Shown: positions 17,486 through 52,066 of the stretch, piece by piece | Layout of the letters: each line of letters opens with the position of its first letter | How positions within the stretch are numbered: the stretch's first letter is position 1 | From: an uncultured Nitrososphaerota archaeon | Lineage (GTDB): Archaea > Thermoproteota > Nitrososphaeria > Conexivisphaerales > DTJL01 | Assembly: GCA_963842885.1 (NCBI GenBank) | Contig: CAWJIE010000004.1 | Span: 96,001 to 160,000, forward strand | Direction of reading: 5' to 3' | Length of the DNA: 64,000 nt | Translations under genes and position numbers: made by a program | The notes under the pieces: model-generated | What the model saw: the letters and a program-made list of their open reading frames with translations, nothing else | Databases searched by the model: none | Told to the model about the DNA's origin: nothing

Positions 17486-17573
17486 GCGGGGGTCGCCCAG
17501 CCTGGCCAACGGCGTCGGGCTTAGGACCCGATCTCGTAGGAGTTCGTGGGTTCGAATCCCACCCCCCGCACCA
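17486..17573 (+). tRNA. tRNA-Leu(TAG), encoded CCA, no intron
   Basis: GCGGGGG/CCCCCGC acceptor stem, TCGGG-CTTAGGA-CCCGA anticodon arm, long variable arm, GGTTCGAATCC. Confidence 0.96.
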
Positions 17574-48580: not shown

Positions 48581-51302
48581 TCACTGTTTGTTTGCTTCTT
48601 TGATGAGGCGAGTTATAAGGTCTCTCAGGGGCTGAGTAGTGGAGGGTATCTCGCCACCTCCCTGGGCCATCTTCGCCGAGCCGCCGCCGGAGCCGCCCAA
48701 GAGCTTGGAGGACTCCTTCACCAGCGTCGAGGCGTCCACGCCGGAAGCCCGGGCCTTCTCGCCGGCGAAGATGATGATCCGGCACCTCCCGTTGAGCCTG
48801 GCCACCCCTACGTAGACGACCTCAGGCCTCTTCTCGACGATCTGCTCTCCCATGGCGATGTGCGCCTGGTCATCGTAATAGTCCGCGTCCAGGAAGAGGA
48901 GCCTGATTCCTCCGATGTCCTCGGACAGATGGGCGATGTTGGCGGCCATCTGGGCGGAGAGCTCCTTCGAGATGCTCTTGTACCTCTTCTTGAGCTGGTC
49001 GTTTCCCTCCCTAAGCGAGCCCACAACGGAGACGATCTGCTCGGGCTGCGTCTGGAACTGCTCGGCGACGCCAAGGACCCTGGATTCCTGCTCCGCCATG
49101 TACTTCACGGCCGGCCCTCCGGCCACGAATTCGAGGCGCTCGACGCCGTCCTGCAGCCTCTCAGCCTTGAGAAGTTTGATGTAGCCCACGTCGCCCGTCC
49201 TGCTGCAGTGGGTCCCTCCGCACGCTTCGACGTCGAAGTCTCCTATCTTCTGAACACGAAGGTCCTTCGCTGGGATCACCCCTCCCTGGTAGAGCCTGAA
49301 GCCATACTTCTGCTCCGCCACGCTGCGTGGCAGGACCTGCAGGTCCACCAGGATGTTCTCGCGGACGACCTGGTTGGCGACTTCTTCGATCTTGAGCATC
49401 TCCTCTCGGGTGAGGTGGCTATGGTGGGTAATGTCAAGCCTTGCCTTGTCGATGTCCTTGTAGGCGGAATGCTGCCAGACCCATGGGCCGAGGACCTGCC
49501 GGGCGGCCCCGTTCACGATGTGTGTGGCGGTGTGGTGGCGCATCAGGATGCCCCTCCTCACCTGGTCGACCCTTCCGTGAACCATCTCGCCTTCTGCCGG
49601 GGCCTTCCCCTCGAGGACGTGGACGATGACGTCGCCGTATTTGATAACGTCGACAACCGGTATCCCGTCGATGGTGCCGAGGTCAGGCTCCTGCCCTCCC
49701 GATCGCGGGTAGAACGCCGTCTGGTCCAGCACGATGGCGTCGTCCCTCAAAGGCCCGGAGGACCTTTGCGTCGAAGTCGAAGAGTGACCTCTCTTCGTAG
49801 AAGAGGGGCCTGGTCCTGGGCAACCCTGTAGTGTCATAGAGGGGCTTCTCCTCCGCCTGCTTCTGGACGATGTGCCTCTCCGTGACCTTCATGTAGAAGT
49901 CGGAGGGGACCGTTATGGAGAGGCCGTTCTCCTTAAGGAGCTCGGGCGTGACCCCCTCGCTGTCGTAGAGGCGGATGAGATCTTCCAGCGACGGCGATTT
50001 CTTTGACTTCTGCAGCTGCTGAACAATGGAGGCGACGCGGGCCTTGCTGGCATCGTACCTCCTCTCTTCGACGCCGAATATCTGTTCCACTGAGCCGATG
50101 CCCTCGGCCAACTCCGGATACATGGGCTTCAAGAACTCGGCATGAAGCGAAGCCAGCTCCGCCAGCGTTATGTCCCAGCCGTACTCTTCGATGAAGTTCT
50201 GGGCCCTTCGGAACAGGACCCGGAGGTTGTACCCGCCGGCCACGTTGCTGGGGAGCGCTCCGTCGACTATGGCGAATAGCAGTGTCCTGCTGTGGTCCAA
50301 GAGCGAGAAGGCCGCCTCCAGTGGAGCGATCTGCGCTTCAAGTCCCTCGCCCGTAAGGCCCAGCTTCCTAGCGACGGCCTCCTTGGCGGCGATGGGGTTC
50401 TGCACCTCGGTGATGTCCAATGAGCCAGCGAGGGAATAGTACTCCGTCAATAGCTTCTGGTCTGGGCGTAGCCCCAGCCGCTTGATGAGATGGTCGTAGA
50501 CTGGGCCGAATACGGCTTCGTAGCTGGTGGGCGTCCCCCGGGTCATCCAGGTGAAACGATTCAGGCCCGCGCCCATGTCGACTATGGGGTGGGGCATCGT
50601 GACGTAGCTCTCGGGCGAGCCTTCGAATTCGGTGAAAACGGCGTTCCCGATTTCAAGGCCTCTCACGTAGTATTCCAGAGAATAGCCGAAGGCCCCATAG
50701 CCCAGCCAGACGTCCTCTACGAAGGTTATCTCCTTCTTGGGGACGCCGAAGGGTCCCGTGAGAAGCCCGTAGTCCAGCTCGATGGTCTTGTCCTTCCAGT
50801 ATCCCTGGGCGTTGTTCACGGCGTGCTGGCCCACCATGCAGAAGGAGGTGTAGTGGCGCCCGGTCACGCCCACATTCTCGATGTCGTTGAACCTCAGGCA
50901 CATCTGGGGGACGACGAGAGGGTTGGCGGGGAAGTCAAAGATTATCTTTCCGTTCTCGACCCTCTGGAAGTCGATTATGGAGGCGACTGTGAAGTAGAGG
51001 TCGGGCCTCCAGCGGGCCACGACGGGATACCTCTTCACGCTTGTGTGGCCACGATCGACGAAGTACTTCTCGATGGAAGCCCAGGCGGTGGTGTAGTCCT
51101 TTCTGACGCTAGTGGGCGGCCTGCCTATGAAAGTGTACCCTTCGCATTCGGGGCACAGAGAGGCGTCGCTGGCCGTCCAGATGAACTTGCCACAGTTGGT
51201 GCATTGTCTGCGAACGAAGCCCTCCTGGCCGAACAGGGCGACCTTGTAGTACCGGGCGTAGTCCTCGGAGAACTTGCGGCGGAGCACGTCCTTGGATGCC
51301 AA
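48581..51302 (-). CDS. alaS: Alanine--tRNA ligase (frameshift near 49750)
   Basis: RYPVVARWR, TGRHYTSF, DMGAGL, GGYNLR; editing HTATH..CGGTH, GSGGG. Confidence 0.96.
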
Positions 51303-51376
51303 TGAGACGCTGAACTCCTGTTACGGGAGGCATGTGGAAGATGTGTTTTTAAAAGGTTTGATGAATCGGGACTAGA

Positions 51377-51542
51377 AACCGGGCCTCTCCCTGTTTGCAC
51401 AGGTTCTCGCGAACCGAAGGTGAGGAGCGTTGGCTGGCCGCCGCAGGCAGTCAAGACTTATTACTGCGGGAGGGGGATGTTCGGCTCTGGCGGGTGGTGG
51501 GGCCTCCCACCGTTCCGCTGAAGAAATCCCGGTTGGGAGGAG
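51377..51542 (+). promoter_or_regulatory. Structured 5' leader, riboswitch candidate, upstream of queT
   Basis: Closed multibranch fold (AACCGGG/CCCGGTT) ending at the SD; anti-SD CCTCCCA at 51503-51509; TATA TTTTAAAA at ~51347. Confidence 0.6.
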
Positions 51543-51550
51543 AATTGAGT

Positions 51551-52066
51551 GTGGACACTAAGATAGCGATGGGGGAACTCAGCAAGAGTCGTGCGGAGCT
51601 GCTGGCGCAGACCGCGCTTATTGCTGCCGTCTATGGCATTGGGACCTACGCGATCGCGCCGATCGCCTACGGCCCCATTCAGGTGCGCATTACGGACGCA
51701 TTGCTGCCAATCTCATGGAATAGAAGGGTAGGCTTTGCTGGAGTGCTGGGGGTGACATTGGGAGTGGTGATATCCAACCTCATATCGCCGTATGGATTGC
51801 CCGACATAGTCATCGGGACCGCCGCCAATCTCTTCGTGGGCCTCATTGCCTACTTGCTGGGGAGGTGGCAGTCCAAGGGTTCCCTGGTCGTGGCCGCCCT
51901 CCAGGCGAGCGTGATAGTGGCGTTTTTCATAGGCGTCCTGTTGATGGCTTTGGTTTATTCCTCCAACCCTATCACAAGTTTCGCCACAATGTTGGTGGGC
52001 GAACTGGTGGCCTGCGTGGGATTGGGGGTGCCCGTCATGCTGGCTATCAAGACCCGCTATCGTTGA
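51551..52066 (+). CDS. queT: QueT-family transporter (ECF S-component for 7-deazaguanine precursors)
   Basis: ALIAAVY, PIAYGPIQVRITDAL, GVTLGVVISNLISPYGLPDIVIG; SD GGGAGGAG 8 nt before GTG. Confidence 0.88.
   Translation: MDTKIAMGELSKSRAELLAQTALIAAVYGIGTYAIAPIAYGPIQVRITDALLPISWNRRVGFAGVLGVTLGVVISNLISPYGLPDIVIGTAANLFVGLIAYLLGRWQSKGSLVVAALQASVIVAFFIGVLLMALVYSSNPITSFATMLVGELVACVGLGVPVMLAIKTRYR

Follow-up and report, generated by a model that had tools for sequence, protein, structure and literature searches.

A conserved 62-nt leader of archaeal queT genes as a candidate translational riboswitch for a free 7-deazaguanine

Which part of the long leader in front of an archaeal queT gene controls its expression, and what does it respond to? 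The question is raised by a 64,000-nt stretch of DNA from an uncultured Nitrososphaerota archaeon (GenBank assembly GCA_963842885.1, contig CAWJIE010000004.1, positions 96,001 to 160,000 of the forward strand; hereafter the window, with its own numbering), for which an initial annotation had placed an aptamer of about 165 nt, starting at 51377, upstream of queT. Based on comparisons with leaders from other archaea combined with analyses of covariation and gene context, we propose that the element is the much shorter motif at 51489-51550, and that this is probably an undescribed archaeal translational OFF riboswitch for a free 7-deazaguanine, most probably preQ0. That the motif senses its metabolite directly is, on the same sequence evidence, also likely. 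The initial annotation found a real and important element with wrong borders.

A conserved leader with two competing helices

The gene at 51551-52066 (plus strand) encodes a QueT-family protein, in agreement with the initial annotation (PF06177, E 1.6e-26 to 3.7e-26, 92.6-93.8 bits where the cut-off is 33.7, covering 1-140 of the 141 profile positions), and its GTG start is retained in five of five genomes of the same genus. The Shine-Dalgarno (SD) sequence GGGAGGAG at 51535-51542 lies 8 nt ahead of this in-frame GTG at 51551, again as annotated; the other sequence strings named there are likewise present, with a single slip in position (CCGCAG sits at 51441-51446). Upstream, on the opposite strand, alaS (PF01411) starts with a TTG at 51302 (minus strand), so that 51303-51550 is a divergent intergenic region. 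Translation of the leader as an N-terminal extension of QueT, the alternative raised earlier, is excluded in the start-codon frame, since one genome of the genus (G002) carries an in-frame TAG two codons ahead of the conserved GTG (open frame 172 aa, match 171 aa). A search for QueT in 61 relatives returned the gene in 19 genomes. In the window's genus, represented by five genomes, the leaders can be aligned. Across the five, the block 51490-51541 is near-invariant; its flanks and the QueT proteins, which are 67-74% identical, diverge. In a DNA run containing the window, a second contig matches the leader at 51490-51543 only, with unrelated flanks, and we take these positions as the motif boundaries in another organism.

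The block recurs well beyond the genus. With a 29-base pattern and up to three mismatches, 401 genomes of the class yielded the five genus members and one genome of another family (G318), in which the motif precedes a QueE-like gene. A covariance model, R1, built from these six sequences matched 54 of the 151 genomes of the order of G318, a sister order, at E <= 0.001 (59 at E < 0.01; one of the 54, G452, is unpublished and counted only). The matches fill some families (13/15, 23/24 and 12/13), and the largest family, f7, gave only noise; leaders of queT homologues from another family were matched as well. In even samples of two phyla, R1 matched 27 of 151 genomes of Thermoproteota, the phylum of the window, and 10 of 121 genomes of a second, Asgard-labelled phylum (that of G601, with records titled Hodarchaeota or Promethearchaeota), four of the latter on contigs longer than 1 Mb. 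Each matching genome in these samples has one match, and the window's genome holds a single copy. Further phyla were reached only by an exact-pattern scan using one genome per species, which found at least 118 stretches. Among 80 returned loci, the 73 with archaeal titles (Bathyarchaeia/Bathyarchaeota, Nitrososphaerota/-ales, Methanomethylicota, Promethearchaeota and Hodarchaeota) all score 28-84 bits with R1; the seven with bacterial titles reach 18.2, 17.8 or 13.4 bits or nothing, and are therefore considered chance matches. A pattern scan of metagenomes found at least 120 stretches.

Given the transcription start predicted below, 51489-51550 would form the entire 5' untranslated region (UTR) of queT. 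All its parts lie on the plus strand. The 5' strand of helix P1, GCGGG (51490-51494), pairs with UCCGC at 51514-51518. Between the two strands are a junction U (51495), the hairpin P2, GGUGGG-GCCU-CCCACC (51496-51511), whose loop and 3' strand contain the anti-SD CCUCCCA (51503-51509), and two further junction bases (51512-51513), an invariant G and a second base, for which the 137 sequences have U 107 times, A 29 times and G once. P1 is followed by a linker, AAA and Y-C-C (51519-51529), a putative pseudoknot loop 3 that is also a putative strand for binding or tertiary contacts; by analogy to the A-rich tails of H-type pseudoknot riboswitches, this A-rich/CCC strand may have a structural role as loop 3. 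The segment CGG-U-UGGGAGG (51530-51540), which holds the SD, is the 3' strand of a third helix, P3, and pairs with 51503-51512. In a MAFFT alignment of the 137 sequences, the columns without variation are those of the U that follows P1, of the junction G, of the first U in the P1 3' strand and of two A's and two C's in the tail. A also fills the penultimate linker position in 132 of 137, and the second junction base co-varies with the third tail base (U-C 107, A-C 17, A-A 12). No model-derived match retained as a member breaks the invariant columns.

The alignment holds 137 distinct sequences from 153 model matches, of which 132 rows entered the pair counts; loci L207-L210 (16-19 bits) and the bacterial pattern matches were excluded as non-members before all counts. 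P1 comprises five pairs: the last, a G.U, is retained in 128 of 132 rows, the fourth is GC in 124, CG in 7 and unpaired in 1, and the second is CG in 126, UA in 1 and UG in 1. P2 is formed by GC, UA, GU, CG and AU pairs around one conserved mismatch position, unpaired in 98 of 132 rows. For P1 and P2 together, 87.4% of cells are paired against 82.3 +/- 0.3 after shuffling, and 44 cells are changed on both sides against 10.4 +/- 2.7 (0 of 500 shuffles as high); slid controls pair in 40-59% of cells. P3 forms between the junction G with its two preceding C's, the 3' strand and the loop of P2 on one side and the last tail C, the GG and the SD on the other; the pair of junction G and last tail C is GC in 132 of 132 rows. 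The five lower, alignable P3 pairs taken with P1 are 94.2% paired against 89.1 +/- 0.4 shuffled, with 51 cells changed on both sides against 12.5 +/- 2.9 (0 of 500) and 40-52% paired in slid controls; pair types here include CG 79, UA 14, AU 8 and UG 8, and AU 82 and CG 18. The upper, anti-SD/SD part of P3 is not alignable in one register, but true partners score 16.2 against 14.59 +/- 0.18 for permuted ones (0 of 300), with pairings such as CCUCC/GGAGG, CACCUCC/GGAGGUG, CCUCGAC/GUUGGGG, ACAUCUC/GAGAUGU, ACCUCG/CGAGGU and UUCCCU/AGGGAA. In one A/T-rich clade the masked segment includes the AUG itself.

P1, P2 and P3 all covary above shuffled and slid controls. P2 and P3 are mutually exclusive, as they share one strand. 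In 119 of 137 sequences the base at the shared position 22 is matched by its P2 partner, and in 109 by its P3 partner, for which neighbouring offsets give 26-51. The strand order, 5'P1 - 5'P3 - 3'P1 - 3'P3 with one base between the helices, is that of an H-type pseudoknot, a topology read from sequence alone. Two components of the originally annotated fold are borne out by these data: the hairpin GGTGGG-GCCT-CCCACC, which is P2, and the alternative pairing of CCTCCCA-CCG (51503-51512) with CGG-T-TGGGAGG (51530-51540) that hides the SD, which is conserved and covaries in other archaea. The motif hence combines what marks a riboswitch in sequence data, i.e. a conserved structured 5' UTR, covarying helices and an alternative pairing involving an expression signal.

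Other pairings were considered for the CCC tail and rejected. Pairing of a CCCC tail with the P2 5' strand fails, as that strand changes (GAGCCG, GAGAGG, GGUCAG and others) without a matching change in the tail, which remains CCCC or UCCC, with a partial fit in one clade only (GAGUGA with UCAC); pairing with the G's of P1 fails, as seven sequences with GCGCG/UGCGC retain an unchanged tail; and CCGG is no essential palindrome, as eight members carry CCCCAAA. A K-turn at the P1/P2 junction was dismissed by eye, since there are no tandem G.A pairs. Loci L196, L198, L200-L202, L204 and L206 have the compensatory P1 flip GCGCG/UGCGC, and their masked segment is not the canonical GGAGG (e.g. GUUGG or GUGGUA).

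Genes behind the motif

The gene behind each motif was taken as the longest open reading frame (ORF) starting -15 to +200 nt from the motif end. Among 209 such ORFs scanned with Pfam, 160 encode QueT, 19 a QueE-like radical SAM protein, 6 an ArcS-like DUF5591 protein and 1 QueC. The first model and pattern sets (107 ORFs) gave 87 QueT, 12 radical SAM + Fer4_12 proteins, the one QueC, no DUF5591 and 7 fragments, miscalls or unknowns, and the more divergent model matches (27 ORFs) gave 13 QueT, 5 radical SAM + Fer4_12, 6 DUF5591, no QueC and 3 without a family. Metagenome loci (75 ORFs) gave 60 QueT and 2 radical SAM + Fer4_12 with neither DUF5591 nor QueC, the rest being mostly chance pattern matches; by eye, about 14 of 80 metagenome pattern matches look like chance, and these were kept in the tally of 75. 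In Asgard archaea and Methanomethylicota, QueT follows in nine of nine cases, three of which (L123, L139 and L075) also belong to the set of 107.

Three radical SAM proteins were compared with NCBIfam, and for each of them QueE models take the top five places (E 1e-11 to 1e-33, full length, below clade-specific cut-offs); the QueC protein scores 195 bits against an NCBIfam cut-off of 150. The DUF5591 proteins match the core of the archaeosine synthase ArcS and contain PC...KPY...S, which we take to be the ArcS motif; Phillips and co-workers are said to have reported it as such in 2010. From the QueT, QueE-like, QueC and ArcS-like genes, the regulon therefore appears to cover the transport, synthesis and use of preQ0. 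Placement before genes of one metabolic pathway across two phyla is a further mark of a riboswitch, and the occurrence of the motif before queT, queE, queC and ArcS-like genes upholds the link to 7-deazaguanine metabolism that the initial annotation had drawn from queT.

The genome of the window itself encodes adjacent queD and queC (G000:C2:236621-237680) and arcTGT, and there is no motif copy at the queD/queC locus. Its queC was matched in three pieces in different open frames. No QueE was found with one QueE protein query, and TIGR03365 gave only weak radical-SAM matches of 21.8 and 19.6 bits; because the genome is 87% complete, this negative is uninformative.

Several loci deserve separate mention. 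At four of them, proteins of about 240 aa that look membrane-embedded and fall in no Pfam or NCBIfam family lie directly behind the motif (L184:71-799(-), L188:216-932(+), L189:207-938(+) and L054:1544-2278(+)); they are candidates for an unannotated 7-deazapurine transporter. The DUF5591 proteins of L190-L192, L194, L197 and L205 stand alone, are about 225 aa long and comprise only the ArcS core, and the motif before their genes is a variant with the tail CCCCAAA and the anti-SD/SD pair UCCCU/AGGGA. In L010, L011, L012 and L015 (family f8), the motif is followed by a short ORF resembling a truncated QueT N-terminus or a start without ATG, GTG or TTG, and an intact queT paralogue lies 100-190 nt further on. 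The queE or queT behind the motif in L037, L041 and L078 seemingly has a start other than ATG, GTG or TTG, or a frameshift. In another genome of the window's genus, queT is matched in three pieces with TAG and TGA inside while the motif is intact (G001:C26:110699-111126; L014, L020, L023), i.e. a pseudogene or an assembly error. Next to the leader in the window, alaS (48581-51302, minus strand) is split over two ORFs that overlap in different frames: 49683-51302 (539 aa) carries the catalytic domain and 48581-49837 (418 aa), by eye, an HTATH-type editing part; a frameshift, an assembly error and a split AlaRS are alternative readings.

Promoter, proposed mechanism and alternatives

The position of the promoter bears on where the element begins. 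In archaea the TATA box is centred near -26/-27. In the 108 loci for which 70 nt or more of upstream sequence is available, A/T climbs from a background of about 55% to 70-92% at -33 to -27, counted from the first G of P1, and is 77% and 73% at -3 and -2; position -1 is G/C in 80%, with G in nearly all rows listed. Since this geometry is that of an archaeal TATA box with its start site, the RNA is predicted to start 1-3 nt before P1. In the window, the predicted queT promoter is a purine-rich stretch with CTTATTA (51457-51463), together spanning 51449-51464 on the plus strand. The box is kept in five of five genus genomes at the same distance as in the 108 loci, and this distance together with the composition at -3/-2/-1 points to a start at 51488-51489 (plus strand). 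The TATA box assigned to queT by the initial annotation at about 51347, TTTTTAAAA (51346-51354, no strand assigned), is indeed present and conserved in the genus, but it lies 44 nt from the alaS start, and the second box CTTATTA occupies the usual distance from the motif. More likely, TTTTTAAAA is the promoter of the divergent alaS, which has AGGAG 13 nt before its TTG on the minus strand; its use for a long queT leader in this genus is conceivable in view of the RNA-library contig described below.

We propose that the element operates as follows. P1 would close it at the very 5' end of the transcript, and P1 and P2 would form first during transcription, leaving the SD free. The P2 mismatch beside two C's could then provide a toehold for the downstream CGG. 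Binding of the ligand to the P1/P3 junction (invariant U, G-N, AAA and CCC) would stabilise the pseudoknot, in which the displaced P2 5' strand would become loop 1 and the A-rich/CCC strand, crossing P1, loop 3. In conjunction, P3 would bury the SD, leaving queT untranslated when the base is plentiful, and queE, queC and ArcS-like genes elsewhere may be under the same OFF control. P2 and P3 are expected to behave like a switch because they compete for one strand and both are under selection; in the window, the two states are close in energy, at -19.5 kcal/mol for P1+P2 and -15.8 for P3 alone. That the ligand would lock the pseudoknot and block initiation is expected from the analogy with preQ1 riboswitches and from the base-supply function of the genes. 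preQ0 is favoured as the final free base in the archaeal pathway and as what QueT presumably transports. According to the relevant part of an earlier study, preQ0 salvage is likely in archaea (PMC5372724).

A number of observations weigh against this proposal. The ligand, most likely preQ0, is deduced only from the neighbouring genes, and the position directly ahead of the P1 3' strand, occupied in preQ1-I riboswitches by the specificity C, holds no C here. Two of the three sequence sets were collected with patterns that prescribe P1, junction and tail, so that part of the invariance within them was built in; the pattern used for parsing likewise prescribes several of the invariant columns. 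Covariation was counted per sequence, not per evolutionary event, and many of the sequences are related. In most sequences the P3 duplex computes as far more stable than P2, with averages over all sequences of -15.1 kcal/mol against -4.6, excluding the loop cost of the pseudoknot; with P3 so much stronger, the element could be mostly OFF, or depend on kinetics or a factor. No partner was found for the invariant CCC tail. Finally, a contig from an RNA library of a relative of about 90% identity (199 nt, depth 2.8, 20 differences), covering 51408-51606, reaches 81 nt upstream of the predicted start and thereby speaks weakly against it, showing neither start nor strand. It may represent DNA carry-over or a longer transcript in the relative; the RNA coverage comes from one run and spans a small share of the stretch, and the parts without coverage carry no evidential weight.

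The same contig would suit the model of the initial annotation, a closed multibranch aptamer of about 165 nt from 51377 transcribed from the TATA box at 51347, which we now regard as very improbable. Also in its favour, the AACC/GGUU part of its P1 (AACCGGG/CCCGGTT) is intact in five of five genus genomes, GAAAAC is shared across the genus 20-25 nt downstream of the first TATA box, and the full structure is paired in 74.8% of cells in the five genus sequences against 68.4 +/- 2.1 shuffled, a figure inflated because the structure was derived from one of the five. However, the fold lies within the shuffle range: 51370-51560 computes at -79.8 kcal/mol against -74 +/- 4.67 in 200 shuffles (z -1.24, 29 of 200 as stable), and its minimum free energy structure contains neither that P1 nor the annotated P2 (CCTCTC/GAGGGG). 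Three of the seven P1 pairs, the G-C pairs of GGG/CCC, are broken in 1-3 of the five genomes, the remaining 5' helices are 50-72% paired, and the only perfect helix of the structure in the genus is GGUGGG/CCCACC. RNAalifold found no covariation in the five genus sequences, a blank due to the invariance of the block there. The 5' two-thirds of the proposed leader are weakly conserved, and this within one genus, and the 5' helices (51377-51475, plus strand: the P1 5' strand, P2 and three hairpins) are outside the conserved motif and absent from it in other genera, where the space upstream of 51489 holds a promoter box and unrelated sequence; the motif there starts 27-33 nt after the box without any such 5' domain. 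The first TATA box, moreover, suits the alaS start. What persists of the annotated aptamer is its 3' third, 51489-51550, with a different P1 (GCGGG/UCCGC). Within the 5' region, between the alaS and queT promoter boxes, the small hairpin CCUGU-UUGC-ACAGG (51390-51403) stays paired in some of the five genomes, where two changes are compensatory.

The remaining alternatives accept the 62-nt element and differ in what acts on it. A macromolecular effector, i.e. an archaeosine-pathway protein such as ArcTGT or ArcS, or tRNA lacking the modification, is unlikely, albeit the most credible of them: structure and gene context would suit any pathway-specific regulator, against so strong a P3 the SD might stay open only with the help of a factor, and the canonical specificity C of class I is missing from its position. 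Yet about 20 invariant unpaired nt in a 55-nt RNA, maintained across two phyla, are typical of a small-molecule aptamer, no conserved partner gene was seen adjoining the motif, and every known preQ1-type queT leader senses its ligand directly, as far as the sections of a review bearing on this go (PMC11625349). Somewhat less probable still is that the motif belongs to preQ1-I after all, as a far-diverged member whose loop 2 has gained a hairpin and whose pseudoknot helix has grown longer. Gene families and element order (P1, U, A-rich strand, SD segment pairing into the P1 loop; same sections, PMC11625349) agree with it, but the AC/UC before the P1 3' strand is replaced by G-U/A, a pseudoknot helix of 10-12 bp faces a competing covarying local hairpin that class I lacks, the classes are described there from bacterial phyla only, and the Rfam models of the preQ1 classes (RF00522, RF01054 and RF02680) match neither the leader of the window at E <= 10 nor 20 diverse motif loci at E <= 1. 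A ligand-independent leader, masking the SD constitutively or in response to temperature, is very improbable; P3 is strong and SD-masking hairpins are common, but such a leader would leave unexplained the invariant single-stranded nucleotides, the single copy per genome before genes of one pathway, and the selection for two exclusive helices. A direct metabolite switch accordingly remains our preferred reading.

Relation to known preQ1 riboswitches

A scan of the whole window against Rfam 15 at gathering thresholds returned nothing except a tRNA (17486-17570), and at E <= 10 the region 51250-51650 gave only two chance-level matches to animal RNA families, so that the Rfam check suggested by the initial annotation produced no matching family. 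In the literature searched, which comprised main texts, few of them from subscription journals, no archaeal preQ-type riboswitch is described; supplementary motif lists of riboswitch surveys could contain the motif. The available text of the review describes three preQ1 classes from bacterial phyla only and does not contain the word archaea (PMC11625349), and archaea are said, in the consulted part of a survey, to "sparingly use very few" known riboswitch classes, mainly TPP and fluoride, both shared with bacteria (McCown et al. 2017, PMC5473149). It is an even call whether the motif constitutes the first archaea-specific riboswitch class and a fourth, structurally distinct 7-deazaguanine sensor tuned to preQ0, one that starts at mRNA +1, occurs in Bathyarchaeia, non-ammonia-oxidising Nitrososphaerota, Methanomethylicota and Asgard archaea, includes A-A (for U-C) junction variants that may differ in specificity, and marks the membrane proteins of about 240 aa as new 7-deazapurine transporters. 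If true, such a compact, abundant class confined to archaea would offer a natural ligand-controlled translation switch for archaeal genetics and a handle on how TACK and Asgard archaea regulate SD-dependent initiation. It would also be a fourth, independent way for RNA to recognise 7-deazaguanines, and in uncultured lineages a genomic marker of genes for preQ0 salvage and archaeosine, among them transporters that lack annotation.

Class I preQ1 riboswitches are about 34 nt long, whereas the motif measures about 55-60 nt. Both are small 5'-UTR elements before 7-deazaguanine genes, and the likeness is closest to type III of preQ1-I (RF00522), known from E. coli. According to the parts of the review that treat the classes (PMC11625349), preQ1-I shares the order of a 5-bp P1, a U, a loop that pairs with a 3' SD segment and, behind the 3' strand of P1, an A-rich strand. 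In the archaeal motif this order, with P1 and P3 both covarying, would likewise yield an H-type pseudoknot with full SD occlusion. In contrast, preQ1-I carries an AC/UC specificity motif with the C directly 5' of the P1 3' strand (PMC11625349), where the archaeal motif has G followed by U, A or G. The motif further differs by the extra covarying hairpin P2 in the loop, which competes with the pseudoknot helix, by the 10-12 bp of that helix, by the invariant CCC and by its archaeal hosts.

With preQ1-III (RF02680) the motif shares the location before queT and an anti-SD in a hairpin loop that pairs with the SD in the 3' tail. As set out in the same parts of the review (PMC11625349), that class, built from 86 representatives that are mostly metagenomic and otherwise from Ruminococcaceae, spans about 100 nt with five helices, an HLout pseudoknot and an aptamer far from the SD, against 55-60 nt and three helices here. 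preQ1-II (RF01054, the COG4708/queT motif) is likewise a dedicated queT leader with the SD inside a pseudoknot helix, but is described there as an HLout fold with P1-P4 and U-rich triplexes from Bacillota only (PMC11625349), compared with only three helices in the motif. Set beside these classes, the archaeal element is probably a new class-level variant of the 7-deazaguanine riboswitches that act by SD sequestration.

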